Below the pieces are notes generated by a model that saw nothing but the letters and a program-made list of their open reading frames with translations, was not told the DNA's origin and did not search any database. A stretch of DNA of 64,000 nt, taken from the IMG/VR virus record IMGVR_UViG_2934156241_000002, positions 19,954 through 83,953 of that record. One strand, given 5' to 3'. This document shows, piece after piece, positions 1,533 to 60,390 of this stretch (the stretch's first letter is position 1; each line of letters starts with the position of its first letter). The position numbers were made by a program, and so were the translations under genes. The DNA is from a virus. Its lineage: Duplodnaviria > Caudoviricetes.

Positions 1533-1538
1533 GACAAC

Positions 1539-1556
1539 CATCCTACCGGTGGGATG
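1539..1556 (-). promoter_or_regulatory. Candidate TA operator overlapping a -10 box
   Basis: Imperfect palindrome catcc(t)accggt(g)ggatg. On the minus strand TAGGAT lies 7 nt before the antitoxin ATG, consistent with a leaderless start. Confidence 0.45.
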
Positions 1557-1787
1557 ACTCAGGTGTAAGGTGTGATCGCCGCCACGAAAGTAGCGGCAAA
1601 TACGCAGAAGGGGCGTCAACCTGGCCCGGTTGACGCCCCAACTTCCTACCCGGTCCTCGCCAAAGGGGGTAGGGACTGCTTGGCACTGAGCATACAGGCC
1701 GCTCGGCGCGGTTCTCTGGTTCCGCGCCAGCCTGTGATACTCGAAACGCCCCAGTTCCTGCCTCTCTGTCCGAACAGAGAGAATTCC

Positions 1788-32912: not shown

Positions 32913-33446
32913 TCAGCGGCGGGCGGCGACGATGGCGGCCGCACGGGACATGAAGTGTGTGCCGTCCGCGACCATGTTGCCCGGGTAGACCGTTCCGACT
33001 TCCGCCTCGACGACGTTCGGGGCCTGGACGGAGACGGTGACCGTGACCCGCCTCCCGGCAACCACGGGTTGGCCGGTGTTGATGTGCCGGGCGATGCCGT
33101 CCGGGTCCTTGTGAGTGGTGCAGCGGCAGTGCTTGAGGTTCGCGATGGCGCGGGACGTACGGTCGCGCGGTTCGAGCATGTATGTGGAGGCGCCGACGCC
33201 GCGGTGCTTGCGGTCCCAGTCCATGGAGTTGATGGTGAAGCGCAGGTTGCCGGGGACTACTTGGCCCTGAGCGGCGACGTGAGTGGGGCGCACTCGGTCG
33301 TCGCCCATCGTCACCCAGCGCTTGGTCGGCGGCGCCAACCGCTTCGCTTCAACCTCCACTTTCTGCGCGATGCGATGTACGGCCGGGGCGACTATCCGAG
33401 CGAGGGACTGCTCAAGACCCTGGGCGGGCGTGAACTTCGCCATCAC
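32913..33446 (-). CDS. Neck/tail-completion (HK97 gp10-like) protein with a MuF-like insert
   Basis: EAKRLAP and HFMSRAA flank KRWVTMGDDRVRPTH...HCRC. Confidence 0.65.
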   Translation of the reverse strand: MMAKFTPAQGLEQSLARIVAPAVHRIAQKVEVEAKRLAPPTKRWVTMGDDRVRPTHVAAQGQVVPGNLRFTINSMDWDRKHRGVGASTYMLEPRDRTSRAIANLKHCRCTTHKDPDGIARHINTGQPVVAGRRVTVTVSVQAPNVVEAEVGTVYPGNMVADGTHFMSRAAAIVAARR

Positions 33447-33777: not shown

Positions 33778-34413
33778 TCAGCCAGCTCCGGCGGCGACAA
33801 GGGCCTTGGAGACGGCCAACTTGACCGCGGTGACGTACGACGTGAACGCGGCTGTGATGTTCTTGCGGTTGGCCCGGGTCATGTCGCCGTTGAGAAAGAA
33901 CGCCGCGCGCTGGGCGGTGCTGATCTCAAGCTGAACGCCCATGCCGCGACTGTTCCGATTACAGATGTTCTTGGGGTCGTTCCCGTTCAGCTCCTCGGTG
34001 GCGAGCTGAACGGTGAACCCGGCGTCCTTGAGGCACTGGCCGATCTGATCGCGGAGGTTGTAGTCCCGTCCTCCGAGGTAAGTGAGCGCTGTCGCGCCCG
34101 TCGCGCCGTGCCACGAGACGACGTGGGTTGCGACCTGCGCCATCGTGAGGGCCTGCGGCTCGTCGTACCGGGTGGAGGTGATGTGCAGGGCGTCGTTTGT
34201 GCCAGTGGGCATGAAGGCGTCAAGGCTGTAGAAGTCGTGGATGTCGGCCGCTGCCGCGTCCGCGAGTTCGGTCGTGCCCGTCTCGATCCCGCCTCCGTGG
34301 ATGGCGAGGTGCAGCAGGGTGGAGACCTGGGAAATGCGCCAGATCCGTTGATAGTCGATGCCCTCGATCTGGCCGCCGGCCAGCTCACCATAGGAGTGGT
34401 AGAGGTCGCCCAT
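33778..34413 (-). CDS. Poly-gamma-glutamate hydrolase family (PghP/DUF867-like)
   Basis: AIHGGGIETGTTELA, LHITSTRYDEP, SWHG, NICN, GVQLEIS. Confidence 0.88.
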   Translation of the reverse strand: MGDLYHSYGELAGGQIEGIDYQRIWRISQVSTLLHLAIHGGGIETGTTELADAAAADIHDFYSLDAFMPTGTNDALHITSTRYDEPQALTMAQVATHVVSWHGATGATALTYLGGRDYNLRDQIGQCLKDAGFTVQLATEELNGNDPKNICNRNSRGMGVQLEISTAQRAAFFLNGDMTRANRKNITAAFTSYVTAVKLAVSKALVAAGAG

Positions 34414-38120: not shown

Positions 38121-39410
38121 TCAGCCGGTCGGCTCGGTCCACTGGCCGATGACGAAGCTCTCGGGCCGCGGGACCTCGAGCGCCAGGCGCTCGTCCGCGC
38201 GGAAGGTGATCAGCCCCTTCTCGAAGTTCTCGCCATTCTCGGAGCTGACGGTGACGGAGACGTTCTCCCGGTCGTGGAGCTGGGCGCCGAGCCCGAACGC
38301 TCCGATGAGGAAGTCCGTGTCGGCCATCGCCGTGGTCTCGACCACGTTGAGCCTCCAGACCTTCTTCTCGGCGCCGATGGCTACGGCGATGGCGACGCGG
38401 AAGGCTCCGTTGTCGTCCTCTTCGACCTCGACGTGCTCCCACATCGTCGGGGACAGGACGATGCCGGTCGGCTCGTACTCGGCCAGAAGCGCCTTGGTGA
38501 TTGCGCGCCGGATCTGGACGGAGTACTTGTCGCTGTTCAGTCCGGTGTACTGCTGCACGCCGGGGGTGTTGTAGATGCCGGTCAGGGACTGGCCGTCACC
38601 GACGGAGTGCAGGAGGTCCCAGTCCTCGGCGAACTTCACGCCCTCGGTCATCCTGGTGTTGATGAACGTCTTCAGGCGCGGTTCGTCGGACAGGATGTTC
38701 TTGTGGGCGTCCAGCAGGTGGGCTACTTCGGCGACCGGGTACATCACCGGGGTCAGCGAAAGCTTCGACCGAGGGGCACGGCCCCAGGTGTCGGTGTCCG
38801 CACCGGTCGCCGGCGAACTGCCGTCGGCGGCGTAGCGCTCCTTCACCTGGCGGGCGTTGTTCGTCCAGCCAGTCTCTCGGGCGCCGTAGAGAACGGTCTG
38901 CTTGGTCGAGGACTTCGGGAACAGGTCGCGCACGTGCCACTTGCGGTAGGCCCGCTCGGCGATGCCCAGGTTCTGGACGCTGCCGAGGGTCTGGTGCGTG
39001 ACCGTGCCCGCGGACAGGGAGAAGATCGACTTCCCCTCCATCGCCGCGCGGATGTACGGACGGTCGTCGAACCCGGCGGAGGTGGCGCGCTTGAAGGCGT
39101 CGGACTCGACGAACAGGTCACCGAGCGACTTCTGCTCCATGCCGCGCACCTGGCCGTAGTGGCTGGCCGCAGCCGGCTGGGTGTCCGGCGCGTCGAGGTA
39201 CTGCTTGATCTCGACCAGGCCCTGCTCGGCGTCGATGAGGCTCTTGATCTCCTGCGCCTCGCTGGAGACCTTGCGGAAGGCAGTGGCCTGTTCGGTCGAG
39301 ACGACGAAGTTGCCGTCTTCGACCTTGAACGCCTGGCTGATCGTCTCGGCCTCGGCGCTCTTGACCTGGAGCTGCTTCTGCAGCTCCTTGATGCGAGCGT
39401 TGTCGGGCAT
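38121..39410 (-). CDS. Major capsid protein (HK97 fold, N-terminal delta domain)
   Basis: Coiled-coil N-terminus, KSLGDLFVES, GDGQSLTGI, FEKGLITFRADERLALEVPRPESFV; start ATG 39410. Confidence 0.93.
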   Translation of the reverse strand: MPDNARIKELQKQLQVKSAEAETISQAFKVEDGNFVVSTEQATAFRKVSSEAQEIKSLIDAEQGLVEIKQYLDAPDTQPAAASHYGQVRGMEQKSLGDLFVESDAFKRATSAGFDDRPYIRAAMEGKSIFSLSAGTVTHQTLGSVQNLGIAERAYRKWHVRDLFPKSSTKQTVLYGARETGWTNNARQVKERYAADGSSPATGADTDTWGRAPRSKLSLTPVMYPVAEVAHLLDAHKNILSDEPRLKTFINTRMTEGVKFAEDWDLLHSVGDGQSLTGIYNTPGVQQYTGLNSDKYSVQIRRAITKALLAEYEPTGIVLSPTMWEHVEVEEDDNGAFRVAIAVAIGAEKKVWRLNVVETTAMADTDFLIGAFGLGAQLHDRENVSVTVSSENGENFEKGLITFRADERLALEVPRPESFVIGQWTEPTG

Positions 39411-39632: not shown

Positions 39633-41576
39633 TCAGCCCCGCATCAAGGCGAGTGCGGACTTCACCTCGTCCTCGCTCATGCGCACTGTCCCCTCCTCGT
39701 CCTCGTCCTCGTCGTCGATGTCGTCTTCGACGGGCGGCGGGGGCCCCGTGGTCGGCGCTTCGCCGGGTACTTCGTCGTCGTCCTCTTCGCTGAATGTGTA
39801 CTCGTCCCACAGGTCCATTCCGGTCGGTCCGGCCGTCGGAGCGGAGGCGGGCACCGCCTCGACCTTCTCCCGGTCGTCGTCAACGTTCAGGCCCTTCGCG
39901 GAGAGAGCGGCGATCAGCGTGCGCACCTTGTCCCGTACTCCCTCCAGATGAGTCGGCTCCGCCTCCACGGAGGTGATGCGGGCGGTCGCGTCGGCGAGCG
40001 CTTCGACGGTGGGCTGCACGATTCGGGCGTCGACGTCCTCGGCTTCTGTGGCCGCGCGCTGCGCGCCCGTCCCTTCCGGAAGGACAACGGTGGCAAGTTC
40101 AACGGGCTGTGGCGTACCGAGGCTGATGTCGCCCGGACCGGTGGCCGTGTAGGGGATCGAGTAGTGGCTGCTGGTGCCCAGCTCCTCGGCGTGCACGGAC
40201 ACGATGACGCGGTCCGGGTACGTGCCCTCGATGCACGTCCACGTCTCGCCGCCCTGGTTGAGGAGTTCGCGGACACTGTCGGACAGGCGGGCGCGGAACT
40301 GTTCCAGGGACTCGGGCAGGGGATTGGGGGACATCGCGGAAACCTCCGGGAGGGACATGAAACGGCTCTTGGCCTCGGCAACCGTGGAACGGGCGGACTT
40401 GTGCTCGATGCGCGGCACAGCCCGTGCGGCGGCCACCGCGGCGCGCGCAGACTTCGCTTCCGCGGCGCCGAGCACGGCATAGGTACTCATCACGCCGGCG
40501 GCGAACTGCTGCGCCTCGGTGTTGGGCTTCGGGCTGGCGGTGCCCTGGGGCAGACTGGCACCGGCCAGAAGAGACCACGGAAAGTCCCGGCACTCAGGCC
40601 GGAGCAGCGGCATGTCGGGGAGGGCCGTGATCGGCCACCAGGCGGTGACCTCGGTGGCGTCGCCTGTGGGGTCGTCCGGATTGGCCACGCGCCGCTCGCT
40701 GTGCGGACGGTTGAGGGGGATGTAGGACTCGCCGGGGACCATGGCGACGAACCCGCGGTAGATGCCGTTCGGAGCGGTCCAGGAACCGACGACGCTCGTC
40801 GGGCCGGGAAGGTCCGCGCCTACTTCTTCCTGCCACTCGCGCACAGCGGCGGCGAGCGGGTCCTCGCCGTCCTCCAGGTGCCCGCCCGGGATCTCCCAGG
40901 TACCTGCGGCTGGATCGTCGTCGTCGAGGGCACGCTGGAGCAGCAGGAGACGACCGGTGTCCTCGGCCTTGACCGCCAGTCCGGCAACCTTGATACGGCC
41001 TCCGTCCGTCGGCTGGTCGAGCTCTACGGCGCCCGGCGTCGCCTTGTACTCCATGCCCGGATTGGCCGCGGCCTTCACCTCGAGCGCGCGGGTCATGGGG
41101 TGCGCGCCGTGAAGGACGGGGCTCACCTCGAACAGGTCGAGTCGGTGGATGACGCGGACGCCATCACTGCGGCGGGTGGCGCCTTCGGTTGGTACCCGGT
41201 AGCCGATGGAGAACGCGGCTTCGTCGTGCTTGAACCACTGCATCACCTGCTCGTAGGCGTCGCGGCCCTTACTCGTGCGCCGGTTGTACTCGACGCTGGC
41301 GACCAGGGCGCCGGCCTCGGCCGGCCAGTCGGGGACGTCGGCGAACCGGGGGTCGCCGGGCATCCACTCCTCGACGTCAAGAACGACGCCGACGACCTCT
41401 TTCCATTCGTGGTGCCAGACGGCTTTGACGCGGCGGTTGGCGAGGGTGCGTGTGAAGGCGCCGGGGGTGATGAGGTCGTTGACCTCGTCGACTATGCCGG
41501 TGACGGCGTAGATTGCCCGGCTGGTGCCTCGCAGGGGGTTCGGGTGTGACGATCTGGTGGGTGGAGCGCTCGGCAC
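39633..41576 (-). CDS. HK97-type prohead protease fused to a Nudix hydrolase
   Basis: DLITPGAF, WHH, FSIGY, LFEVSPVLHGA; Nudix box GGHLEDGEDPLAAAVREWQEEVG; GGAGG RBS before GTG 41576. Confidence 0.88.
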   Translation of the reverse strand: MPSAPPTRSSHPNPLRGTSRAIYAVTGIVDEVNDLITPGAFTRTLANRRVKAVWHHEWKEVVGVVLDVEEWMPGDPRFADVPDWPAEAGALVASVEYNRRTSKGRDAYEQVMQWFKHDEAAFSIGYRVPTEGATRRSDGVRVIHRLDLFEVSPVLHGAHPMTRALEVKAAANPGMEYKATPGAVELDQPTDGGRIKVAGLAVKAEDTGRLLLLQRALDDDDPAAGTWEIPGGHLEDGEDPLAAAVREWQEEVGADLPGPTSVVGSWTAPNGIYRGFVAMVPGESYIPLNRPHSERRVANPDDPTGDATEVTAWWPITALPDMPLLRPECRDFPWSLLAGASLPQGTASPKPNTEAQQFAAGVMSTYAVLGAAEAKSARAAVAAARAVPRIEHKSARSTVAEAKSRFMSLPEVSAMSPNPLPESLEQFRARLSDSVRELLNQGGETWTCIEGTYPDRVIVSVHAEELGTSSHYSIPYTATGPGDISLGTPQPVELATVVLPEGTGAQRAATEAEDVDARIVQPTVEALADATARITSVEAEPTHLEGVRDKVRTLIAALSAKGLNVDDDREKVEAVPASAPTAGPTGMDLWDEYTFSEEDDDEVPGEAPTTGPPPPVEDDIDDEDEDEEGTVRMSEDEVKSALALMRG

Positions 41577-41635
41577 GGCGGGAAACCTCCGGCGGTGGAC
41601 AGTGGGCCGCCGGGCACCGTGCCGTTCGCGTCTGC

Positions 41636-41845
41636 CTAATGTCCTGTGCTGGCCGTGGGCTGGTCCGTGGCGTCTTCCGTCTCCGACCGCGCCATGGACC
41701 AACCGCGCATCCAGTAGCGGTGCCCGAACTGCTGCTCCGCGTTGCCGGCCCGGTTGTAGGGGCTGGAGTCGGCCGGGTCTCCGGCCTGGTAGGCGGCCTT
41801 GCCTTCCTGCTGCAGCGTCAGGCAGGCCTGGCGGTTCAACTCCAC
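41636..41845 (-). CDS. Rmf/CrpP-fold-like small protein
   Basis: EGKAAYQAG...SPY...YWMRGW; GAGGGAG RBS before GTG 41845. Confidence 0.6.
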   Translation of the reverse strand: MELNRQACLTLQQEGKAAYQAGDPADSSPYNRAGNAEQQFGHRYWMRGWSMARSETEDATDQPTASTGH

Positions 41846-41858
41846 GTCGTCAGCTCCC

Positions 41859-42449
41859 TCACTGGAACATCGAATCCTGTACGCCACGATCGGACGGAGG
41901 GGCGTTCTCGGGCTGATCGGTGCCTTCGGCCTGGCTGTGCGTGCGGGTCATCTGCGCGCCGTCGACGTCGATCGCCCACGCGTCCGGGTCGGTGTAGCGC
42001 CACACCTGGCCGGTTCCGTCCCGGACCCACCCTGTGAGTGTGCCGTCCGGGGCCCGGTCCAGCCAAGCCTGTTCGCCGTTGCTGCCGGTGTATGCGGACC
42101 ATGAGTCGGCCGGGTCGGTCTCGTCGCCCTCGTCGTACATGTCTCCGGCCCACGGGCGTGAGTCGTCGGGCGGGGGTTCTACTTCGGCAGTCGGTTCCTC
42201 GCTGGGCAGGGGGGCGGCGCTCTCGGAGCCCTCCGCAGGGGGCTCGGCGGCGGGATCCGCCGGAGACGCAGCAGGGTCTCCTGGTGGCGTTTGCGGGTCA
42301 GAGGGAAGCTCCCCGAAGGCGGCCGAGGGGTCTTCCTCCTCGAGCACCTCGTCGTCGGCGGTTTCCGCCTGGTCGTCGTCTTCTTCGTCGTCCCCGAACG
42401 GCTTACCGCCCTTGGGGAGAGCCTTGATGGCGAATCCGTATCTGGTCAC
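41859..42449 (-). CDS. Acidic hypothetical head-module protein
   Basis: D/E/P-rich N-terminus; Trp-rich domain AWLDRAPDGTLTGWVRD; predicted leaderless GTG 42449. Confidence 0.7.
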   Translation of the reverse strand: MTRYGFAIKALPKGGKPFGDDEEDDDQAETADDEVLEEEDPSAAFGELPSDPQTPPGDPAASPADPAAEPPAEGSESAAPLPSEEPTAEVEPPPDDSRPWAGDMYDEGDETDPADSWSAYTGSNGEQAWLDRAPDGTLTGWVRDGTGQVWRYTDPDAWAIDVDGAQMTRTHSQAEGTDQPENAPPSDRGVQDSMFQ

Positions 42450-42475
42450 GGGCGGAGGATGGCGGGTGCCGCCGC

Positions 42476-42485
42476 TTGTGTCCCG
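42476..42485 (-). promoter_or_regulatory. Late-promoter upstream box, leaderless start
   Basis: CGGGACACAA-N14-CATCCT-N6-GTG(42449). Confidence 0.65.
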
Positions 42486-42520
42486 GCCACACCCGCCACC
42501 AATCCGCCCAAGATCATGCC

Positions 42521-42534
42521 TGCACAATTGTGCA
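42521..42534. promoter_or_regulatory. 14-bp palindrome (copy 2 of the 36481 site)
   Basis: TGCACAATTGTGCA; its flanks match copy 1 in inverted orientation. Confidence 0.6.
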
Positions 42535-42544
42535 AGCGCTCGGA

Positions 42545-42814
42545 TTACCCGGAAACACGGGCTTCCCGAGGCGCACCGCGCCCCTCTTCCAGGACGCTGG
42601 TGTACTCCCGCAGCACGGCGAGCACAGTCGCCTCATCGTCCCCGCTGACCGCCCGCACGGGGCCGGTCGGAGACAGGGAGATGGGGCGGCTCTGGTGGAG
42701 CTCCACCAAGGCCGCTGCACGATGCGACCCGATCACCGGGCGGTCGGCCCGCCCGGTGATCTGCACTGTGTAGGTCGCGCCGTCGTCGAACCTGCCGGTG
42801 ACGGTGAACGGCAA
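42545..42814 (-). CDS. Small protein directly downstream of the giant gene
   Basis: AAGGAG RBS overlapping the giant-gene stop; TTG start; MPFTVTGRFDDGATY..., 89 aa. Confidence 0.7.
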   Translation of the reverse strand: MPFTVTGRFDDGATYTVQITGRADRPVIGSHRAAALVELHQSRPISLSPTGPVRAVSGDDEATVLAVLREYTSVLEEGRGAPREARVSG

Positions 42815-42824
42815 GGCGTTCTCC

Positions 42825-45800
42825 TTATCGTGTGGCGAGCAGGCCCAGAAGGAATGCCCGCAGGTCGTCGTCCAAATACCAGTCGCCGCTGAACATCGCC
42901 TGAACGGATCGGGCGAGAGTGTCACCGGTGTCCGTTTGTGTCTGCGTCCGGGACAGGAGTCGCCCCAGCGCGGTGTACCGCATGCGTCGCGCCCCGGGCC
43001 GGCCGGTGTGGGTCTGCGTGAACCAGAACACCCTCTGTGCGGCGTCGAGGTCACCGAGATGCTGCGCAAGGTGCTGCGCCAGAGCGTTGCCAGCGGTTCC
43101 AAGCCCTCCGTCGGCGAGGTCGGCGACCGTGATGCGCTGCCCGTTCGCGTCGTAGCGGCCCTCAGGCCCGTTCACGGCCGTCACCCGGCGGGTGGCCGGA
43201 GTGTTGAGCCAGGATCGCGGGATGAGGCGCTGAACGCCCCGTACCGACCCTTCCGCATCGGAGTCGCTGTCCGGCGCGAACACGAGGCTGGTGTTGCCTT
43301 CCGGTCCCATGTCGCGGATGTCAGCGAGGGCGGCCGCGACCGCGTCAGGCACCGCCGCGGCGTACCGGGCGCGCAGTGCCTCGTACTCGCGTCGGGCGCC
43401 GTTAACCTCCATGCGGGCAGCGGTGATCTCGACCTCGAGTTCCGGGTCATCCGGGAGGGTCGAGCTGCTGCGTGCTGCCTGCAGGTTGACCAGGCGCCGC
43501 TCGCTGGTGGCCACGTAGTCGTCCGCGTGCTGCAGAGTGCTATGCGGGTCCTCGCCGAAGTCGTCGCCCAGAGCTCCAGCCAGACGGCGGGTCACCTCTT
43601 GGTCGACGTCGCTGCCGGCCGCACGAAGAGCGGCCATGTGACGCAGTGCGGTAAGGCCGGGGCCGCCGTCGACGGCACGGTCCGGTGTCCAGTGGACACG
43701 GTCCGACCGTTCCGGGAGGCGACCGGCGGCAAGCTGCGTCCACGTGGTGGGGCGCCACCACGTGACCCTGCGGGGGGCCTGTCCGAAGCGGCCGGGCTCC
43801 GGCATCAGCCCTGCCCAGTGGGCGACTCGGGAAGCCAGCGACTCACCGTCGGTGGTGGGCAGCGTGACCGCTCGGTGAAGACGGGCGAGCCGGCGGGACT
43901 CCGGCCACTGGCGGACGCGGCGAACGAGCCGGCCGAGGAACGCGCGAAGACGCCTCATTCGCTCGCGCGCGCCGCGCCACTTTTCGCCGATCTCCTGGGC
44001 ACCGGCCTTCACCAGTTCCACAAGGCGCTTCGCCATCCGGATAAGAAGTGCCACGATCCGGGCCAGGAGCCCCGGCTGCCGACCGGCGTCCGGAGACACA
44101 GTGGCCACACGGCGTGCGATACGGCGAGCGGTGGACTGCCGGGTTCCAGCGAGCTGCTGAGTCAGACCCCGTGCGATCCGGTCGGCGTCGCCCGGGTCGA
44201 CGCCCGCGGCCTGGAGCTGCCGCAGCAGGGCATTCACCGCATCGGCAGTGTGCCCGGCAACGGTGCGCGCGATGTCGTCATCGCCGTCCGCCTCGGGCCG
44301 GAGTGCGCCTGCAATGCCGTCAGGTATGAGGCTCAGCAGGTCTCGTGCGCGTGCCGCCAGGTCCTCGTCGCTTTCGTCGGGAAGTGGCTCGAGGTCGTTG
44401 ATGGTGCGCAGCGCGGCCCGGACGGTTGCCCTGTGAGAATCGATACGGGCCCGCTGGAGGGCCTGCAGCGCTGCATCGCGATCGGGTCCGGTGACGCCCG
44501 CAGCGTCGAGGGCGGCGATGGAGTCCTGGCGGGCCGACCGTCGGGCATTGCGCAGGGCGGCACGGGTGAGGCGCTGCGCGATGCGCTCGCGCAGGGCGTG
44601 AATGTCCCCGGGCGGCTCGGTGCCGGCTATCGCTTCGTCGATGATGCGTGCGGCCAGGCCGCGGACGTGGTCGTTGACGATCCGGTCGACGTCGTTCTGC
44701 GGACCCGGGTTGGGGTCGCGGGGAGCTCCGATCGGGGGGAGGGCGGGGGTGGGCCGGTTCCGCTCGTAGACGCTGACCTCGCGGCCGGAGTGCAGTCCGA
44801 AGTCGTGCACGTTGCCGTCGTCGTCGATGCCGGTGAGCTGCATCCACCACCCGTTGCGGTGCGGGGCGCTGATGATCGTCAGGCGTCGGTGCCCGTTGAG
44901 CTGGTACCCGGTCCGGGAGGTGGGGGCGTCGATTAGGTCGCCGACCCGAAGGTTGCCTGGCCGTACCCGGGTCACGGGCAGCGAAGGTGTTGCCGGGGCG
45001 CTCGGAGCGGCCGGTGTGCTCGGAGCCGGGGAGGTGTCGTCGGAGTCCGGCGCCGTCGGTGCGTCCGGCTCGGCCTCGGGAAGCTGCCATACCGGCATGG
45101 CGCCGTGAACGATGCGGCGGCGCCACTGCTGGTTCTCGTCCGCAAGGAGCAGGCTGCGCACGCCGCCGGGGCCGTCTTCGGCGTCGATGACGCGGAACAC
45201 GTGCACTTGGTCGCCGCGGCGTTCGTCGGGCATTGCCACCATGTCGCCCTCGCTGAGCTGGGCGGCGTTCGAGGGGCGCGGCCGGTCCAGGCCCGGGGGC
45301 GGGGTCCGGCCGGCGGCCTGATCGAGGTGGTCAGCGGCCCGCAGTGCGGCCCGCCCTTCCATCGTTGAGGGGTCGGCTGTCGAGCGGAGCTGAGCAGCGA
45401 GTGCTGCGGCCTGCTCCGGCGTGACCGGAAGGTCGCCGGTGATACGCGCTGCCGCCTGCTGTGCGTCCGGATCGTCGTCCGGCCCGTCGGCATGATCGTC
45501 GATGACGGCCCGGTCGTCCGGGGTGAGGGCGGGATCGACAGTCGGTCCCGTCACGGGGTCCACACGGTTCCGCGGGCCATGCACAGTCATGTCGTCGTCC
45601 GCGTCGGGGGCGTCGTCGGGGCCGAGGTCGGGGGTTTCGCCGTCCCTGCCCTGCGCCCGCGGGAGCACCGCGGAGGCGTCGACCTCGATCTCGCCCACCT
45701 CTCCTGTGGTCGTGTCCGCGTACTCGATGGTCACCCGGTCCCCGTCCCTGCGGGTGCCGGTGACCGCGATGGTGGCGATCGTGTCGTCGAGGTCCAGGAC

Positions 45801-48800
45801 GACGATGTCGCCCTCCTTGAGGTCCGCGGCCGCCGGAGTATCGATTCCCGCCACCGGGCTGGTGGTCGGGGCGTCGTCGCGGACTTCGCCGGTCACTCGG
45901 AGGCCTTCGGCGCTGCGCGTGATGTTGCCTTCAGCAGTGGCGATGGTGACCTCGTCGCCGTTGACCTCGTCCACGGGGCCCAGGCGGGCGCCGTCGGTGT
46001 CGCTGACGATGTGCTGTGGGCGCACCCGCTGCCCGGACGTGGTCCAGCCGTCGGGGCGTTCGCCACCGGTGACCGTGAGCGAGGACGGTGAGACAGCGGC
46101 GTCGTCTCGGCCGTCGCTCCAGTGCACGGAGACGGTGGTACTGGTGGCTCCGGTGACGGTCCCTTCCCGTTGGTTGGAGCCGACGGTGCTGCCGGGGAAC
46201 ATGCCTCGGCCGTTGCGGTCCGCGGGTATGACGTCGGGCAAGCCACCGGCCCGGAGAGCGCTCTGTGCGCCGCTGACCGGGGAACCGGGCACGACGTCAT
46301 CAGGCGATTCGGCGCGCGCCGCGGTGGCATTGATCGAGGTGTAGACGTTCCCGGCGGCGCCGGTGCCGTCAGGGTTCTCGGTGATCCAGGTCCGCCACAT
46401 CTGTTCGGTGCGCCCGCGGCGGGTCACGTCGACGCGTACGGGCGACGTGTAGACGTACCCGGCTCGCTGAGTCTTCCGGCCCTTCTTCGTGGTGCCGTCC
46501 ATACGGACCATGTCGCCGGGCGCCAGGTCCTCAACACGGGCCCAGTGCGCGGGCTGGCCACCGATCGGTTCCGGGGCCGGCTCCGACTCGGGCTCCACCT
46601 GCGAACGGGCAGTGTCCTCCGGGGGATTCACGGGTTCGTCGGGCGTCGGAACTGCGGGGGACAGCGCGTCGCTGTCGCCCTGCGGCTCGTCGGTGCCGCG
46701 GGGCCGCTGCTCGTCACTATCCGGATCCTTCCCGTGCGGCCGCTGATGGTCGCTCTCCGGATCTCCGAGGCCGTTGAGGAGCTTTCCGGCCCAGAAGGAG
46801 CGGTTGTTGAGTCTGCCGCGCTGTCCCATTGTTCGCCTGGTGTCGGGCAGGAGATCGCTCAGCCCCGCGAAGTCGTCGCGGGCCTGCACCAGGTCGTCCC
46901 GCAGGTCCCCGCTCGGGGACTGATGGCCGCGGAAGGCTTCTAGCAAGGTGGTCAGCCGGTCGTGTCGGGCGCGTGCCTCGGGGACGTTGAGGAGCGACTC
47001 CGGCAGCTCCCACGCCCTGTTTGTCAGGTGCCCAGTCACCGTGCGCCAGACGTCCTCACTCGGGTTCGTAGGGTCCACGGGGCCGTCCCGCAAGGCACGG
47101 ACGACGAGGTTCGCGATGGCCGTATCACGGCTCTGGGAACGGCTGCTCCGGTCGATGTCCAGGCCGAAGAATGGTTCGGCGTCCCATACCGGGCTCCGGT
47201 TGGGATTCGACCGGTAGATGTTGCGGATGTGGCCGATCTGCCGGCCGTGGAGCCACACGGTCTCGCCGTCTCCGATAGGGCGCAGATCGGCCCGGTCGGC
47301 GAACTCCCGCATTTTGTCGTGGCCGCCGAACCGGAACGTGGCGTCTTCCGTGCTCTCAACGTCCCGGGACGGTGCGGGGGCGACGTCGTCGGCCGTGACT
47401 GTGACCGTGTCTTCGGAACCTCCGGCTTCGGCCGTGTCTTCGGAACCTCCGGCTTCGGCCGTGTCTTCGGAACCTCCGGCTTCGGCCGCGCGGCGCTGCT
47501 CCTCCTCGTGAAGGTCGCGGGCAGTGCGTTCGTTTTCGTGGCGCGACCGCTTGAACTGGTTGAAGGTGAGGCGGCCGCCGTTCGCGTCGAACCAGTCCTG
47601 CAGTTCTTCGCTCGCGACGTTTTTCCACCGATCGAACTGGGACATGCTCCCGCCAGAGAAGAGCTCCCGCTCGTCGATCGGTCCGGCCTCGTGCTGTCGG
47701 CGGAAGAAGTACCCGTTGGTGGCGGCGATAGCAGCCAGGTAGCGGGCCTCATCGATGTCAGCGAACTCGGCGCGCAGGGCACGGTCGACTTCTCGCTGCC
47801 GGTACTGCGTGTACGTGAGCCGGCCGTTTCCGGTGGTCTCGCCGTCGCCGTCGAACCAGCGGTTCAGCTCCGGCGAGGCCAGTTCCTTCGCACGCTTGTT
47901 GCTGTACTTGCTGCCGGAGAACAGGGCCCGCGGGTCGATGCCTTGGGCCTCGGCCTCATGGCGGAGCATGCGCCCGCCGGTGGCCTGCATGGCTGCCTGG
48001 AAACGCTCCTCATCGAGGGCGTCGAACTCTCGGCGCAGGCCTCCGGGGGTGGCCGGAGCGGGCTGCGTGACGTCTGTGTCACCGAAGCCGAGAGCCTGGT
48101 CCATGGCGCGGCCGCGGCTCTCCGCCTCGTCGGCGTCCGCTGGCGGCGTGTCCGGCACAGCGGCGCGGATCCGCTCGTCGACGTACCCGTCGCGGCGGTC
48201 CATCTCCGCCATGACGCGGAGCTCATCCGCTGGGCCAAGGCCCTGTCGGAAAGCGGCCTCGAGGGCGGCGTCGTCCAGACCGGTGAGGTCGTCGGGCAAC
48301 GTGAAGGCGCCGTTGCGCTCCTGCTCGTAGTCGTCCTGAACAGCGCGAAGCGCCTGGGGGAGGTTACGGCCTTCCCCGTCGCGCCACGCGGCGACGCTTG
48401 CCGGGCCCCACGCCTCATGCCAGTCGAAGGGGGCGCCGTTGCGATCGGTGATCTCATCGAACCGTCCGGCTAGGGCGCGCGCCTCCTCGGGGTCGTCGGA
48501 GGTCAGGATGATGCCAGGCAGGTTGGTGCCGTTGCGGGCCTGGGCGAAGCGCCACAGGGTGGTGCCGTCCTCCTGCTGTTCCGGCCACGTCACCAGTCCA
48601 CCGCCCGGAGAGAGCTGCAGGCCTTTCCGCTCGGAGGCCTGCGTCAGAGCGGCGCGGCGCTCGGGGGTGTCCTCAGCTGCGGTGAGCCCGTCGCCATTGC
48701 GCCAGGCACGACGAAGGGATTCAACGTCGCGGTGCCTGGCGGGCCGGTTCCCTCGGCCGTTGCTCGCCCTTCCCTCTCCGGGACCGCCTTCGCCGCGGCT

Positions 48801-51800
48801 GCCGTCGGACGCGGGTATGGGCAGGCGGGGCAGGCCAGGGCCGCCGGGACCACCCGGGCCGCCACCTCCAGGCCCACCGCGGCCGTTGCCACGGCGGCGG
48901 CGACGGCGACGCCGGCGCTGCTCGCTGTCCTCGTCCTCGTTTTCGTTCTCCGGGTCCGGTTCGCCCTCGCCGCCGTCCGGCTCGCTGGCAGGGACTGCGC
49001 TGTCGTCTTCGCTTTCCTCGTCGTCGTCCAGCTCGCCGCCAGGGCGGCTGCTTTCGCCCTCATCGGCCGGAATGCCGTCGGGGCCGCTACCGTCGTCCTC
49101 GTCATCGGCCGGGGCATCATCGGGGTCCGGAGCCGCGTCATCATCCGTGGCCGGCAGCGACTCCTCGTCGCCTTCGCCGTCCTCGTCCTCATCCGGCGTC
49201 GGGCTGGGGCCGTTCTGCTCGTCATCCTCGTTGTGCGCGAGGCGGTCGACGCGGTCGGTCAGACTGATGGTGAGCAGGTTGGCGAGGGTGGGTTCGTCGC
49301 CCTCCGGTCCCACATGCAGACGCCACGCCGGTTCCGGCTTCCCCTGGACTGTTCTGGTGACTCGCAAGGGCTCGGCCAGGAGGTGCCCAGACAGGGTTTT
49401 GTCGGACCCGCGGTTCGTCAGCCCGGTCACCCTGACTCGGTCGCCGACGGTGAGGCGGTCCGGCGCGACGATGTTGCCCTCGGCCTCAGCCTCTTGCTGC
49501 TTCTGGCGTTCCTGCTCCTCCGCAGCCCTTCTCGCCGCTCGCATCGCGGCGATCCGCTCCTCCTCTGCCTTCCTCTCCGCTATCCGCTTCTTCTCGGCCG
49601 CGATGAACTCGCGAACGGGTTCCGAGTCCTTATCGGCCCGCACCACGTTGTAGTCGGCCGGCGTGAAACCGAAGCCACCATCAGAGTTGTCCGGGTTGAA
49701 GGTGAGTTCGTCACCAACCACCGACGTCTCTGTGTGCAGCCATGTTGCGTGCTTCGTCCCGCGCGAGTTGGTGTCAAACTTGACGACGGCGTATCCGTCG
49801 CCAGCAGCGATGATGTCGCCCTGCTTCAGCTGCCGGTACGTCGTCAGATGCTCGCCTTCGCGGAGCGGACGCAGGTCTATGGATGCGTTGTGCGCTTCCA
49901 CGGAGAAGGCCCGCAACGCCTGGGCGAATTCGGAAGTATCACCGTCGTGATTGATGTGCGGCCACGCACGGCTGGCGGCCCCGCGAAGGTGGTCAGCGGC
50001 CACGTCACGGTCACCGTTGGCCAGTGCCTCTTCGGCTTCCCGCATTGTCTCCGGGATGGAACCGAGGCCGCCCAGTTCGTCGGCGTCCTCACCCGCTGCC
50101 TGCGCTGCTTCTTCCAGGGCCCTGAACCGTGTCTTCAAGGCCTCCGGCAGCGGCCCATCGGCCAAGACCGCAATGGGCGTTTCGGCGTCCGCTTCCGATG
50201 GGCTGGCCGCGGGACCATCGGCAGCGTCCGGCTGGCTCTGGTCCGCCTCGTTCTCCGGTATCTCCTCATCGGGGTACCGCAGGCGCAGCTCGGAGTCGCT
50301 GTTGTAGAACCGCTCCCGGCCGTCGTCGGTGACGATGCGGGTACGGCCGCGGCCGGTACGTACGGGGGGCTCCGCCACGGTGTGGGTATGGCCGTCTGCA
50401 TCGGTGTACCGATCGCCTTCCTCAAGATCGGCGGCGTTTCGCATACGGGCCGGCCGCAGGGCCGTGGTGTCGCGTCCCTCGGCTGCGGCGAACATGTCCG
50501 GTGTGCCGAGCTCGTCGGCGGGCCGGTCCTCGGGGTTGTCCAGGTCTGGGGCGTTGTCCGCCTGGGGCGTGGTCTGGTCGTCGACGTCGAAGAGGCCGCC
50601 GGGTGTCTCGGTGGTGCGTTTCGGCTTCGGGGCGGGCTTCGGGGCGCGGCCGGCGCGGCGGGCCTCTTCCGCTTCGAGGACCTGCAGGCGGGTTCGGTCC
50701 GCTCCGGAGAGGTCTCCGGCCATGTCCTGGCCCATCAGGTCCACGATCTCGTCGCGGAGTTCCGCGTCGTCCATGGTGGACGGCGCCTTCGACCCGCCGG
50801 GGCGTAGGGCGTCGAGTTGGTCGGACACCTCGTCCGGGGTCAGGGTGACGGTCTCGTTGCTGTCGCTCTCGCCTGCTGGTTGCTGCGTGTCCGGCGCATC
50901 GGCGGGCGGTTCGTCGCCGCTGGCATCCGTGTCCTCCGAGGTACTGAACGGGTCGGCATCGCCCTCCTCGTCGCTCTCGTCGTCGCTTCCGCCCGTCGGT
51001 GTGTCGACCGGTGGCTCGTCGTCGTTGCCGCCCGCGCCAGAGGCGGGGGACAACGCCTCTTCTTCGGCCGGCACGTCAACGTTTGAGTCGGTGGCGGCCG
51101 AGTCGCGTTCGTTGTCGGGCGTCTGCGGAGCGTCGTTGCCCGGCGTGGGGTTGGGCTCGGGGCGGAGGCGGGCGAGAGTGTCGCGTACTTCGTCCTCGGG
51201 GAGGTGCACCGTGTCGTCCTGCTCCGGCGCCGGGTTGTCCAGGTCCCACTGCATGAGGGCGAACTCGGCCTCTTCGACGGCTGCCTGTAGCGGCTCGCGC
51301 TCCTCACGGCGCGCCGTGGCGATCTTGTCGCGGTCGGCCTGCTTGTACTTCTTCTTGTCGAGTTCGTCGGGGTCGATCTCAGGCTTCGCGTCGAGGTTCG
51401 TGATGCGGCCGACGATTTCCTCGAGCAGGTTCGCCCGTGTACGGGCGTGGTTGATCTGGGGCGTGAGATCGGCGGCGGCGTGCGCGGACTGGAGGAGTGC
51501 GATCTGCTCGTCCAACTCGGGCACCTTGGCTCGGTCCGACTCCTGCAGGGCGGGTGCCTTGTCGAGCGCGTTGGACAGTCGGGTGATCATGCCCGACCCG
51601 GCGCCCTTCTTCTGCAGGTCGTTTACCGTCCGCTCGAACGTCGAGTTCCGCAGGTCGGGGAACCCGACGTGTGCGAAGAGTTGGCCGTTCGCGTCTCGTT
51701 CGGTGCGGACGCCGAAGTCGAGGCCGCGAAACTGGCCCAGGACGTGCCAGGGGCCCATTCCCTCGCGGTCGTGCTCCAGGAGGCGGGCGGTGATCTGCCG

Positions 51801-54800
51801 GTGCAGGGCCTTGCCAGCGTCGGAGCGCTCCCCGTACGGGGATCCGCCGAGCGTCATGCTGAACCGGTCGTCGGCTGCCTGGATGCGAGGGAGGGCCTGC
51901 TCGCGCCGCTGGAGGCCTTCGCGGGTGTCCTGGGCTTCCTGGCCCAGATCCTGGAGGGCTTCGCCGCGGCGGATGCGTTCGGCGGCCTCGTTGTGCTGGT
52001 CGATCTCAAGTTCCTTGAGCGCGCGGCGGGCCTTCATGAGCTGGCTCATGTAGGGGTTGCCGCCGATCTCGGCTTCCATGGTCTCGTAGTCGAACTCGGC
52101 GCCGTCGATCTCCTGGACGACGTCGCTGGAGTCGCCGTCCTCCGGCTCCGGCCGCTGGATGTCGATCAGGCCCGCGGCCTTCGCAGCGACGAATCCGGCC
52201 TTCCAGCCGTCCATGGAGCCCTTGGTCGCGAAGATGTCGATCTCGACCTCGGGGTTCATGTTCCCGTAGCGCAGGACACGGCCGTTGCGCTGCTCCATCT
52301 GCGCGGCGCCCCAGTCGAGGTCGACGTGGGAGAGGGAGATCATGCGGTCCTGGGCGTTCATGCCCACACCCGCGACGGCGCTGGAGCCGATCATGACGGA
52401 GATGTCGCCCTCGCGGGCGCGGCGGAACAGCTCCGTCATGTCCTCGGGCTTGCCGGTCTTCTTGGCGTCCTGGACGAAGGCGATCTTGTCCTCGGGGATG
52501 CCACCGGCCACCATGAGGCGCTTGAGCTCGGCGTAGGCGTCGAAGTTGCCCTTGTTCTTGCCGCCCGGTACGCCTTCGTTCAGGAAGATCATCTGGAGGG
52601 CGCCCGGGACGGGGTGGTCCGCGTTCTTGCCGTACGCGACCTTGTAGGTCCGGTCCTTCGTGGCGTGGTACCGCTCGATGTGCCGGTCCGCGACGGCCTT
52701 GAGCTTGTTGCCGGCCGGGGCGTTCGGATCGACGATGCGGGGGTCCAGGGCCACGCTGGTGCCCTCGTTGGACACCGCGAGCATGTTGTCCTCGTGGCGG
52801 TCGACCTCGCCTGTGTGTATCGCGCGGCCGCGTTCGACGAGCCCCTTGAGGCGCTTCTTCTGGTCGGGCGTCGCGTCGACCATGATCAGGTTGGGGGCGC
52901 CGCCCTTGACCTTGGGCCGGGGGATACCGACGTCGGCCGCCCGCTTGGTGTCGGTGGTCAGGCCCCACATGGTCTTCATGGCGCGCTTGTTGTGGAACTC
53001 GGAGAACCGCTCCACGACGCGCAGGCCGGAGCCGTCGGGCGCGTTCTCGATGCGCAGGGTCTTGCGGCCGAAGGTGTTGGCCCACAGATCCGGGGCGCCC
53101 GCCCTGTAGGCGTCCAGCACCCACGGGGAGGCGAACGACAGCATGGTGAACTGCTCGCTGATGCTGTTGGACATCGGCGTGCCGGTGGCGAGGGTGATCG
53201 TGGCCCGGCCCTGGCGACGGCGGTGCAGGTCGGTGGTCTTCTGGTGCAGGTCAACGCCGCGGATGGATGCCGGGTCGCCGCCGCCCTCCTTGGAGCGGAA
53301 GCCGACGCCCTTGTACCGGTGGGCCTCGTCGACAACGAAGTAGTCGAAGCCGAGGTCGTCCCAGTACGTCTCGCCGGGACGCCGCATCGGGGCAGCGTTT
53401 TTGTTGATGTTCTTGCTGACCGTCGCGATGCGCTGCTCGATCTTCGCGACGATGAAGGGGTGGCTCGGGTTGGTAGCGTCCTCGTACTGGCGGTCAAGCT
53501 GCTCGCGCAGCGCCTCCAGTTCCCGGAACGCGTAGTCGTCCTGCGCCTCCGGGCTCATCTTGATGGCGCCGAACGCTTCTTCGGTGAAGATGACCAGGTC
53601 AGGGCGGTTTGCGCGCAGCCATTCCAGGGTGCTGCCGCGCCGGTCGCCGGCCAGGTCCGCCGTAGTGATCAGGTGGATGTCGGCGTTCGGGTACAGGAAC
53701 CGGGCCTCGTCGGCCCACTGCTTGGCCAGTCCGTTCGGGACCACGGCCATCGGCTTGTTGATCTGCCCGGACGCCTTGAGCGCCTGGGTGCCTATGACGA
53801 GCGTTCCGGTCTTGCCGAGACCGACCTCGTGGGCGAGGATCACGCCTCGTTCGAACTGCATCCGCGCGGCGCCGGAGAGCTGCCAGGGGTGCGGCGTCCG
53901 GTCGGGGGTGTAGCCCTCGAGCGTGGGCGACATGCCCTCGTACGAACGGACGATGTGCCCGTTCATGATGCGGTTGTACGAGTCGGTGAGGACCGTCAGC
54001 CGGTCTGCGTTCGCCGTGGCGTACTTGGCGAACTCGGCACGCATCTGGTCGGCCTTCTGCCGAATCAGACGGGACGTAACCTCGTCGACTTCCTTGCGCT
54101 TTTCGTCCTCGTAGACGGTCAGCGAGCCGTAGCCGAGGATCGCGCGGGCGATCTCCGCGGCGTTCTTGCCCTTGTTGCCCTTGATGCCCTTGCCCGGGTC
54201 GGGCTTGACGGCGGGAACGCCGTACATGACGTTGTTCGCCTCGGGCACACGGCCGGTGTTGAGGATCCAGCCGTACCGGTCGTCGTGCGCAACGTTGAGG
54301 GTGCGATCACCCAGGTACTCGCGGAGGAAGCCCTGCAGGAGTTCCGGCGGCGTCCAGTGGGCGCCCATCTCGGGCGTGAACTGGCCGATGGTCCGGTCGC
54401 GGGGCTGGACGGCCTCCAGCGACGCCACGTTGACGGCATACGCCGGATCCCGCTCGGCGGCCTTGCGGGCGGCGTCGAGCTTGTCGCGAACGGCACCGGA
54501 CAGGTACGCGCTGGCCAGTTCGAGGCGGCCGGTGGCCGGGTCGGTGAAGACCTCGGTGCCGAGCCGCTTCAACGCCTCCTGCGGGGTGACGTCGAGGAGC
54601 CGTGCGACCTCCCCGAGGTCCACCTCACCGTTCGCGGCGACGACTGCGGCCAGGGCCGCCTTCGGATCGTCGGTCGACGTCAGCGGCTGGCGGCGTGCAG
54701 CGGCGCGCTCGGTGAAGATGCGGGAGAGAACCGGCTCACCCGTCTTGGCGTCCCACCGCTCCAGGGCGAGGACGGCCCCGGCGTCCGGGTCGGCCCGAAA

Positions 54801-60362: not shown

Positions 60363-60390
60363 GCGGCGGACCATGCACAGCGCAGGTGGT

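Follow-up and report, generated by a model that had tools for sequence, protein, structure and literature searches.

An 18-residue peptide found at the very end of the head-maturation protease of a Streptomyces phage occurs twice more inside a giant enzyme of the injected type, 5849 residues long. It may be a docking element for the prohead interior that was copied into a DarB-like cargo protein, a reading to which we give an about even chance of being correct. The object of analysis was a 64-kb stretch of phage DNA (the window), and all features described here, including the three full copies, are located on its minus strand. The strict motif TV.[LM]..DEV...L..[LM]R, searched as a regular expression in all six frames of the window, gave three matches: the translated protease C-terminus (TVRMSEDEVKSALALMRG, 39636..39689) and two sites in the giant protein, copy A (TVHLPEDEVRDTLARLRP, residues 3055-3072, 51159..51212) and copy B (TVTLTPDEVSDQLDALRP, residues 3175-3192, 50799..50852). 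The twofold recurrence and the consensus reported in the initial annotation were thus reproduced, as were its coordinates for the protease tail and copy B, while those for copy A were one base off. The regular expression for the 9-residue core adds only one weak site in the six frames, TVTVTADDV (47382..47408, residues 4323-4331). It had been described as a weaker occurrence near 47400 and is indeed present, but it comprises the first half of the motif without the helix half and is no full member. This site directly follows three tandem repeats of AEAGGSEDT, is succeeded by Ala/Pro-rich sequence, and has a partial counterpart in locus L011 and in the cultured phage Gilgamesh.

The flanks of the copies are acidic, compositionally biased, and of low complexity, and the consensus was set after the fact, so that a chance resemblance within such sequence had to be considered. 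When the last 18 residues of the protease were slid along the giant without gaps and scored with BLOSUM62, copies A and B received scores of 43 and 30, respectively, and the next best site 22. None of 2000 composition-preserving local shuffles (60-aa block) reached the observed scores; the best score in any of them was 38, and the second-best stayed below 30 throughout. Moreover, an independent tail profile derived from other genomes recovers the sites in the giants, and the motif is kept in 78 of 91 giants. Together, the shuffles, the independent profile, and the conservation in giants effectively refute chance resemblance, and its probability is close to nil. At the nucleotide level the three copies are no more than 56-65% identical, and therefore they do not result from a recent DNA duplication.

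The protease gene (39633..41576) was identified by Pfam, PHROG, and homology searches and matches PHROG 80, head maturation protease. Its GTG start at 41576 was assigned by homology to gp52 of Gilgamesh, with 67.6% identity between the two proteins. The gene encodes a fusion of an S78 protease domain (about 41055-41510; Pfam PF04586, E 1.6e-11), a Nudix domain (about 40620-40976; PF00293, E 1.2e-16), a conserved C-terminal domain, a tether, and the tail, right after which comes the stop codon (39633-39635). Both composition and AlphaFold2 confidence define the tether (39690..39893) as acidic and disordered: residues 562-633 have pLDDT values below 50, except residue 613, and the 70 aa preceding the tail include 26 D/E and 3 K/R. 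Within it, L589, W590, and D591 (39804-39812) are the same in all 19 sequences compared, amid an otherwise hypervariable linker.

The gene for the giant polyvalent protein (42825..60374, from the list of open reading frames and its translation) is located between the protease gene and a gene directly upstream that encodes a portal protein with a C-terminal MuF-like domain (60631..63093). The portal matches PHROG 2662 (E 3.4e-80) and Pfam Phage_portal and Phage_Mu_F, with the head morphogenesis (MuF) matches at residues 726-817. The core of the giant, residues about 1332-3044 (51243..56381), is a DarB-like N6-methyltransferase and SNF2 helicase module; it matches PHROG 10089, "DarB-like antirestriction" (E 8.8e-145 and 5.8e-118), as well as Pfam N6_Mtase, SNF2-rel_dom, ResIII, and Helicase_C. 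This core and the genome position fit the reading of the giant as packaged cargo. Copy A starts 10 residues past the end of the DarB-like module, and copy B, found in 14 of 14 related loci, immediately precedes the next conserved module. The linker between them (50853..51158; pLDDT below 50) is hypervariable and contains 32 D/E and 1 K/R in 102 aa, so that the acidic surroundings noted initially were found at both the giant and the protease. Among relatives this linker varies in length and content, with extra motif copies (L018-L021 and L030) and an inserted small module being gained or lost.

The initial annotation had named homologues as the place to check the motif, and it is conserved there: the tail matches the regular expression in 105 of 120 protease homologues, as do the 78 of 91 giants mentioned above. 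Of the 15 negative proteases, 13 carry obvious variants of the tail. The giant homologues range from 3419 to 6321 aa, and the named ones are nearly all from Streptomyces; those with the motif have one to three copies, and 3 others are near-misses. A hidden Markov model built only from the protease tails of other genomes was searched against the six-frame open reading frames of 1.1 million residues and, beyond proteases, matched the post-helicase sites of giants alone, at the position of copy A (E 4e-5 to 8e-3). The combined motif profile produced 50 matches in giants and 24 at protease C-termini, and none in any other protein among 4945 open reading frames. In the protease tail the mean column identity is 0.74, compared with 0.40 over the preceding 40 residues; for copy B it is 0.83, compared with 0.49 upstream. 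Invariant residues of the motif, copy B included, show synonymous codon variation, and by these comparisons selection acts on the motif at the protein level.

The motif is also portable, surviving variable acidic flanks and the swapping of neighboring modules. The tail is kept in proteases fused to either a Nudix or a 2H phosphoesterase domain, with or without an extra insert, and giants with a UvrD-type helicase in place of SNF2 have an A-type copy (P0163, P0198, and P0214, one each). A relaxed form of the tail is found at the end of 28 out of 63 distant representatives (50% identity) of protease or scaffold-like type, among them stand-alone proteins of about 220-250 aa as well as protease fusions. 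The relaxed pattern had no matches in 51,837 residues of capsid proteins and none in 69,819 residues of proteases outside the last 60. Judged from this distribution, the tail is of old origin and belongs to the C-terminus of a broad family of proteases or scaffold-like proteins.

The insertion, deletion, and swapping of modules exactly between the copies could also mean that the motif is structural punctuation with no shared partner, a helix-capped end-piece that closes off modules or holds linkers in an extended state and was spread between genes by recombination at module borders, in which case the resemblance between the protease and the giant would be functionally meaningless. Copy B is only about 12 residues ahead of two more helices and could belong to them. 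However, the low nucleotide identity between copies and the variable synonymous sites make DNA-level recombination sites unlikely. The distance of 18 residues from the motif start to the C-terminus is fixed in 104 of 120 protease homologues, and among the 28 distant representatives with the motif 21 keep it as well. This points to a terminal binding function, and confinement to two head-module proteins would not be expected of a generic linker element. We regard such a spread of end-pieces as quite improbable.

In AlphaFold2 models of low overall confidence (mean pLDDT 52 and 61), each copy is a lone amphipathic helix of 11-12 residues with pLDDT 60-75 between flanks below 50. The tail helix comprises residues 635-646 of 647 (pLDDT about 60-63) and comes after a disordered stretch, the helix of copy A (3060-3070, pLDDT 73) is followed by disorder, and that of copy B (3180-3190, pLDDT 75) is preceded by it. 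The 18-residue unit can accordingly be described, as modelled, as a short strand (T-V-x-L), a helix cap (S/T/D-x-D-E), and the amphipathic helix, which places V9, L13, and L/I/V/M16 on one face. A predicted lone helix within disorder fits the form of a docking peptide.

The capsid protein is the inferred docking partner. This HK97-type major capsid protein of 429 aa (38121..39410; PHROG 10) matches Pfam Phage_capsid (E 4.5e-29) with its C-terminal half only. About 94 residues form an N-terminal segment, by analogy a delta domain, ahead of an invariant E-x-K / S-L-G-D boundary; in 69 sequences E92, K94, and F100 are invariant, and S95, L96, G97, and D98 are at least 90% conserved. Among the distinct tail strings listed, 59 of 60 contain E-V-K-(A/S), which resembles this capsid boundary, and the motif could instead be a processing signal: a recognition or exosite element for the head protease or a cut site between modules of the giant, the tail being a site of autoprocessing. 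The copies are indeed at module junctions within disordered linkers, and passages of PMC5512222 already propose processing of polyvalent proteins. Nevertheless, 17-18 residues with helical periodicity far exceed the length of a cleavage site, and the motif is absent from the capsid protein, the substrate expected to bear a cut site. E-x-K-S, a putative cut motif, occurs three times in the capsid protein and four times in the protease, but not in the giant, where 0.45 occurrences would be expected. The giant copies do not retain the lysine of position 10; over all instances, tails included, this position is S in 30%, R in 22%, A in 18%, and K in 14%. Overall, a role in processing is improbable.

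Not all relatives show the full recurrence. Giants lacking the helicase, which account for 5 of the 13 negative giants and also include that of Gilgamesh, retain just the initial half of copy B (V-x-L-S-P-D-E-V), after which the sequence turns Ala-rich; not every giant of the family therefore needs a full copy. In a plasmid of Thermobispora bispora the genes for portal, giant, protease, and capsid protein follow one another in the same order, and the capsid proteins are 46% identical. The protease tail of this relative has diverged, and its 3842-aa giant contains no significant recurrence of the tail, since 33% of shuffles reach the best local score. Within genomes, the similarity between tail and giant was 39.5 compared with 38.0 +/- 0.8 in permuted pairs, an excess that is only marginal (reached by 3.2% of permutations) in a set of 27 pairs, assigned with a contig-length heuristic and with phylogeny uncontrolled. 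Another difference concerns the free end: the copies in the giant are internal with proline next, whereas 104 of the 105 positive protease tails begin exactly 18 residues before a free C-terminus. Should binding depend on the free end, the internal copies may bind differently from the protease tail.

A conserved N-terminal domain of the giant (H-P-R-D-x-K-G-R-F ...) is present in the window, Gilgamesh, and Thermobispora (three relatives inspected), and in the latter two the internal motif is half or absent. Because it adjoins the portal-MuF fusion, this domain may be the primary loading signal, by analogy with P1 DarB, whose signal is N-terminal according to passages of PMC9024508. The giant could then be loaded mainly through this domain, and the motif could dock on another common partner, such as the portal-MuF fusion, the conserved C-terminal domain of the protease, a second motif helix in mutual pairing, or a host protein after injection. 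The MuF-like domain of the upstream portal is of a kind described in parts of PMC5512222 as an anchor of head-internal proteins. Restriction to two proteins and a helix within disorder would suit any shared partner equally. On the other hand, neither motif profile matched any further open reading frame of the searched loci, and the capsid-targeting element of the HK97 protease reportedly lies at the extreme C-terminus. The capsid-binding peptides studied in 80alpha (passages of PMC5644958) and SPN3US (passages of PMC7411985) likewise occupy the extreme C-terminus of a protease or scaffold. Docking on a partner other than the capsid protein thus seems rather unlikely. Of the capsid-targeting signal shared by the two proteins that was proposed initially, a shared binding function is favored by conservation, confinement to two proteins, the age of the tail, and the modelled helix, while the proposal that it loads the giant cargo is weakened by the helicase-less giants, the Thermobispora relative, and the N-terminal domain.

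For docking in the prohead interior, we infer which partner is bound, that the giant is packaged, and how it is released, as follows. The original home of the peptide would be the extreme C-terminus of an HK97-type head protease. There, at the end of a lengthy tether that is disordered and acidic, it would attach the protease, together with its fused Nudix or 2H enzyme, to the capsid protein, probably at the N-terminal scaffold-like segment or the inner surface. In the Streptomyces phage-plasmid family represented here, the DarB-like giants would have gained one to three such copies internally, displayed at module junctions on linkers that are acidic and disordered. With these, a giant of roughly 630 kDa could bind the same sites multivalently and be trapped on closure of the shell. 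It would become free for ejection together with the DNA once the protease has digested the scaffold segment. Cargo-loading peptides of encapsulins are similarly short, mostly C-terminal, and carried on a flexible linker, and they attach cargo to the inside of an HK97-fold shell, but they belong to another sequence class and to a non-viral compartment without a protease or DNA packaging.

The HK97 protease studied by Duda, Oh and Hendrix in 2013 reportedly has a C-terminal targeting region, not a defined short peptide; the initial annotation had given a short C-terminal peptide as established. For the SPN3US protease gp245, a packaging signal was inferred in the C-terminal domain (passages of PMC7411985). 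The phage described here resembles these systems (HK97 gp4, SPN3US gp245) in that its S78 protease has the catalytic domain at the N-terminus and a distinct element at the extreme C-terminus, and in that its HK97-type capsid protein carries an extra N-terminal segment. In contrast to them, the element is a defined strand-plus-helix of 18 residues. It is carried on an acidic tether about 70 residues long, an enzyme (Nudix or 2H) and another domain lie between it and the catalytic domain, and it is copied inside a second protein.

According to passages of PMC5644958, an amphipathic helix of 11 residues with a hook, which binds the capsid protein at one site, is common to the C-termini of the 80alpha scaffold and SaPI1 CpmB. 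Two different proteins with the same short peptide are found here as well, with a modelled helix of 11-12 residues, but there is no RIIK-type hook, the copies of the second carrier are internal and several, this carrier would be a cargo enzyme rather than a size-determining scaffold, and the capsid protein, unlike that of 80alpha, includes a scaffold-like segment at its own N-terminus. In P1 DarB, the first 30 residues suffice to direct a reporter to the capsid, and the authors found no N-terminal consensus among Dar proteins (passages of PMC9024508). As with DarB, a short peptide is proposed here to address an anti-restriction-type protein with a DarB-like core to the head. The P1 and T4 signals are N-terminal, with those of T4 clipped off, whereas the candidate tags here occur more than once in the interior of the protein and are of the same kind as the tail of the protease itself.

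Phage-type polyvalent proteins were described by Iyer, Burroughs, Anand, de Souza, and Aravind in 2017 (PMC5512222) and predicted in passages of that paper to be packaged and injected. The same passages link packaging to MuF or portal fusions and discuss peptidase domains; an internal peptide like the protease tail is not described in these polyvalent-protein passages. Like the proteins portrayed there, the giant has many modules, is encoded beside portal/MuF genes, and combines a methyltransferase-helicase core with swappable modules.

The last 18 residues of the S78 head-maturation protease (TVRMSEDEVKSALALMRG, positions 39636–39689, minus strand) recur twice within the giant DarB-like polyvalent protein of the same virus. 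Read from translation, copy A is TVHLPEDEVRDTLARLRP (51159–51212, minus strand, residues 3055–3072) and copy B is TVTLTPDEVSDQLDALRP (50799–50852, minus strand, residues 3175–3192). The initial annotation had claimed three full occurrences of the motif in the protease tail and the giant; all are present, and the consensus TVx(L/M)xxDEVxxxLxx(L/M)R, searched as a regular expression in six frames, matches these three sites only. It had also listed a weaker site in the giant, TVTVTADDV near position 47400, which was found with the nine-residue core at 47382–47408, the only site that the core adds in all six frames, and which falls outside the full consensus. Sliding the tail along the giant without gaps (BLOSUM62) gave scores of 43 and 30 at the two copies, the next best being 22. 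No score above 38 was obtained in 2,000 shuffles keeping the local composition, and the second-best score was always below 30; the probability of a chance resemblance is regarded as negligible. Nucleotide identity among the three copies is 56%–65%, so they do not represent a fresh DNA duplication, and the flanks of the copies are strongly acidic. A perfect threefold tandem repeat of the nine-residue unit AEAGGSEDT (47406–47486, minus strand) directly precedes the weak half-motif.

The window, with a GC content of about 69%, covers 64 kb of one 84-kb contig; a record of the same giant protein also exists for a 126-kb contig. Between about 18 and 64 kb, the minus strand encodes a structural block of siphovirus type, in which the portal gene with a C-terminal MuF-like domain (60631–63093), the giant ORF of 5,849 residues (42825–60374), a small ORF, the protease fusion (39633–41576) and the HK97-type major capsid protein (38121–39410) occur in this order, all on the minus strand. 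The major tail protein, a 1,351-residue tape measure and tail proteins are encoded beyond the capsid gene on the same strand. The giant is encoded within the head-gene block, beside the portal and MuF. The order portal-MuF, giant, protease and capsid protein is also found in Streptomyces phage Gilgamesh (129 kb), the closest named phage, whose protease is 67.6% identical, and in a Thermobispora bispora plasmid. Homologues of the capsid protein occur mainly on Streptomyces contigs of ~120–136 kb, several of which are labelled plasmids, and the protein is present on seven PLSDB Streptomyces plasmids of 125–133 kb (e.g., CP108533, NZ_CP107934, and CP109288). The element is therefore a member of a Streptomyces phage-plasmid family of roughly 125–135 kb, to which the cultured phage Gilgamesh also belongs. 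Between the head and tail genes lie a poly-gamma-glutamate hydrolase-like gene (33778–34413, minus strand; PHROG 4175, E 2.2e-38) and a second, short MuF-like gene (32913–33446, minus strand).

Conservation of the motif in homologues had been set beforehand as a test, and it was found in 105 of 120 proteases and 78 of 91 giants. The protease homologues were cluster representatives at 90% identity; the regular expression matched within the last 30 residues, in 104 cases exactly 18 residues from the end, and 13 of the 15 negative tails were evident variants. All 14 protease-bearing IMG/VR loci (L002–L015) carried the tail at the end of the protein, one of them as a variant plus an extension, and the acidic linker ahead of it was hypervariable. 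The matching giants contained one (47 proteins), two (20) or three (11) copies. The 13 giants without a match comprised three near-misses, one degenerate form, five with the first half only followed by an Ala-rich stretch, and four without an anchor; gp48 of Gilgamesh is of the first-half-only type. Copy B was present in all 14 loci with a helicase-bearing giant (L017–L030). Copy A was recognized by the regular expression in seven of them; the remaining seven have, according to the alignment, a degenerate A-type version with the pattern V-R-L-[S/P]-x-x-E-V-x-x-x-L-x-x-x-R. The consensus drawn from 101 distinct instances reads T81 V96 x L96 x x D82 E86 V96 x x x L100 x x (I/V/L/M) R81 P80, where numbers are percentages. 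The closing residues are R or Q and then S or G in the tail, and R-P in the internal copies. Codons at the invariant residues differ between genomes. Mean column identity was 0.74 in the tail versus 0.40 upstream of it, and 0.83 in copy B versus 0.49 upstream; the value for copy A (0.30) was disregarded because the alignment splits this copy over several columns. That the peptide is punctuation without any partner appears improbable.

A first profile, for which only the tails of proteases from other genomes were used, was searched against 1.1 million residues of six-frame ORFs. Beyond proteases, it matched only the post-helicase sites of giants, with E values from 4e-5 to 8e-3. The significant matches of the profile of all instances were 50 in giants and 24 at the C-termini of proteases; the rest of the 4,945 ORFs had none. 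A search with the last 255 residues of the protease against 1.84 billion representatives found 63 proteins, and a relaxed motif ends 28 of these distant proteins; it lies 17–20 residues from the end, with an acidic stretch ahead of it. The relaxed motif had no matches in 51,837 capsid-protein residues or, leaving aside the last 60 residues, in 69,819 residues of the proteases. Annotation of 14 distant matches showed seven protease fusions, whose modules are RNA-ligase/2H-like, Nudix or others, five proteins of ~217–248 residues without an informative match, and two for which the only match was a family of unknown function. It follows that the tail is far older and more widespread than the copies in the giants, which, judged from their sequences, look like later acquisitions.

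The protease fusion contains an S78 catalytic domain (Pfam PF04586, E 1.6e-11; PHROG 80, head maturation protease, E 7.9e-17). The tail behaves as a separable C-terminal element: it makes up the final 18 residues, with ~70 disordered residues ahead of it, and survives swaps of the middle modules. Most relatives have a Nudix domain between the protease and the tail, in one clade it is replaced by a 2H phosphoesterase (two H-x-T motifs in the alignment; Pfam PF02834 and PF13563), and some relatives have a further insert matching PHROG 6439. All these changes leave intact the tail and, some 40 residues ahead of it, an invariant L-W-D. The head protease is a carrier of exchangeable enzymes, and the enzymes fused to it are probably packaged by riding on it. 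Variants of the protease modules were seen in L013–L015, L023, and L027. The AlphaFold2 model of the protease (19 sequences, mean pLDDT 52) consists of the protease domain, a weakly modelled middle part and a folded C-terminal domain at residues 424–560, followed by residues 562–633 with pLDDT below 50, except residue 613, and a terminal helix at residues 635–646 of 647 with pLDDT of about 60–63.

In the giant, the DarB-like module spans residues ~1332–3044 (PHROG 10089, "DarB-like antirestriction", E 8.8e-145 and 5.8e-118) and includes an N6-adenine methyltransferase and an SF2 helicase core (Pfam N6_Mtase, SNF2-rel_dom, ResIII, and Helicase_C). Copy A starts 10 residues past its end. The AlphaFold2 model of residues 3000–3400 (15 sequences, mean pLDDT 61) shows a long helix closing the helicase module, copy A as a short helix at 3060–3070 (pLDDT 73), ~100 residues with pLDDT below 50, copy B as a short helix at 3180–3190 (pLDDT 75), and then another pair of helices together with a small beta domain (pLDDT ~90). 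Thus, according to the AlphaFold2 models, each copy consists of a strand-like T-V-x-L, an S/T/D-x-D-E cap and a helix of 11–12 residues. V9, L13 and residue 16 are predicted to share one face of this helix, and each copy would be presented on acidic, disordered tethers. Between A and B, additional copies and a small module are gained in relatives. One A-type copy is found in each of P0163, P0198, and P0214, homologous giants with a UvrD-type helicase in place of SNF2. A run of nine arginines (residues 3820–3828; 48891–48917, minus strand), also present in gp48 of Gilgamesh, has a long acidic stretch on its N-terminal side and a Gly/Pro-rich segment on its C-terminal side. Residues ~4197–4276 (47547–47786, minus strand) match the C-terminal parts of PHROG 1752 ("head maturation protease", E 6e-17, two stretches) and PHROG 12049 ("head morphogenesis", E 8e-13), and thus represent a domain common to the ends of head proteins in other phages.

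To our knowledge, little has been described of how giant polyvalent proteins enter phage heads; those entry signals that are documented sit at the N-terminus, as in T4 internal proteins and P1 DarB, or act via MuF or portal fusion. The T4 targeting signal of injected proteins is removed by the head protease. The C-terminal region of the HK97 protease is said, in work by Duda from 2013, to target the capsid. Both targeting peptides and peptides common to scaffold-like proteins are already known. In studied systems, peptides that bind the capsid protein are located at the very C-terminus of a head protease or scaffold. The capsid protein has ~94 N-terminal residues before an invariant E-x-K / S-L-G-D boundary, and the Pfam capsid model match starts only at residue 221 of the 448-residue ORF, i.e., at about residue 202 of the 429-residue protein; by analogy, the N-terminal segment was read as a delta-type scaffold domain. 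The simplest account of the sequences, to which we give roughly even chances, is that the tail would dock the protease fusion to the procapsid interior and the internal copies of the giant would use the same site. We propose only tentatively that the ancient tail helix, seen on protease or scaffold-like proteins across many actinobacterial phages, could be a general cargo-loading code which one lineage copied internally, several times and on acidic tethers, into a 0.6-MDa injected anti-restriction protein.

The C-terminal part of the SPN3US protease was inferred to be needed for prohead entry (PMC7411985), the 80alpha scaffold SP and SaPI1 CpmB share a C-terminal 11-residue amphipathic helix and hook that binds the capsid-protein N-arm (PMC5644958), and P1 DarB is packaged via a short N-terminal signal (PMC9024508). 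As in SP and CpmB, a predicted amphipathic helix of ~11 residues occupies the extreme C-terminus of the protease, although the giant copies are internal. The tail lacks an RIIK-like hook and has no sequence homology to SP or CpmB, and the likeness is an analogy only. P1 DarB is the prototype of the giant's core, but unlike the N-terminal signals of T4 and P1, the copies lie at residues 3055 and 3175 of 5,849. Neither a description of this motif nor an internal multi-copy imitation of a protease tail in a giant DarB-like protein was found in open-access papers and preprints. If docking is correct, the phage would load its largest cargo by imitating the address label of its own protease, a solution different from the documented signals in that a protease-shared tag is usable internally and in several copies. 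The peptide would then be a portable, position-independent tag for foreign proteins in HK97-type capsids and a small handle for loading HK97-type shells; it could also serve as a sequence rule by which packaged proteins are predicted, and work in Streptomyces would gain a concrete, mutable target of 18 residues.

Several observations count against docking. Gilgamesh-type giants have only half of the motif; a proline follows the internal copies, while the protease tail keeps a fixed distance to its free end. Co-variation of the tail and giant copies within genomes was marginal, with phylogeny not controlled. In the Thermobispora bispora plasmid, with the same gene order and a capsid protein of 46% identity, the protease tail has diverged, and its recurrence in the giant of this plasmid was not found (33% of shuffles reach the best score). 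Alternatively, the peptide could bind another common partner and the giant be loaded through its N-terminus, which we consider rather unlikely. The N-terminal 100 residues contain no full motif copy. The N-terminal domain, shared by the window, Gilgamesh and Thermobispora (the three relatives inspected), adjoins the portal-MuF fusion, which also counts against docking by the peptide; this domain is a candidate portal/MuF-docking or loading domain. It carries H-P-R-D-S-K-G-R-F and T-V-R-L-W-G-G at residues 36–56 (60207–60269, minus strand). A supposed fourth copy at residues 50–56 (TVRLWGG...) was rejected, as it had no score in the tail slide and lies within this conserved, probably folded domain. 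No virion proteome of any family member and no papers on Gilgamesh were found in the open-access literature.

A second alternative, that the peptide is a processing signal, is unlikely: the motif is too long and is absent from the capsid protein, and E-x-K-S, the candidate cleavage sequence, occurs four times in the protease and three times in the capsid protein versus zero times in the giant. We infer that a cut site at the giant's motif is conceivable, but no tie to cleavage was found. Should the partner differ or the motif mark processing, ~90 giants, more than 120 proteases and modules swapped around a fixed peptide would still make a clean system. In the protease, a unit E-x-K-S-A-R-x-x-V is repeated three times within 30 residues (ORF residues 415–445, ~40370–40470, minus strand), in the segment that joins the Nudix domain to the C-terminal domain. 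The unit is similar to the major capsid protein's invariant E-x-K / S-L-G-D boundary, and, from its sequence, units of the E-x-K-S type are a candidate cleavage motif of the head protease.

Other protease tails were also observed. Acidic linkers also occur in two distant S78 proteases, those of Gordonia phage ChisanaKitsune and Brevibacterium phage Cantare, but their C-termini are different, and no obvious recurrence was seen in the last 80 residues of neighbouring proteins, as judged by eye and without statistics. A second tail type, a conserved D-S-T-A-P-S-A-(L/M)-P stretch leading into a helix (proteins P0358, P0377, P0388, P0390, and P0393), ends another branch of protease or scaffold-like proteins, including that of Thermobispora. 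There may be exchangeable classes of tail, each suited to its own capsid protein.
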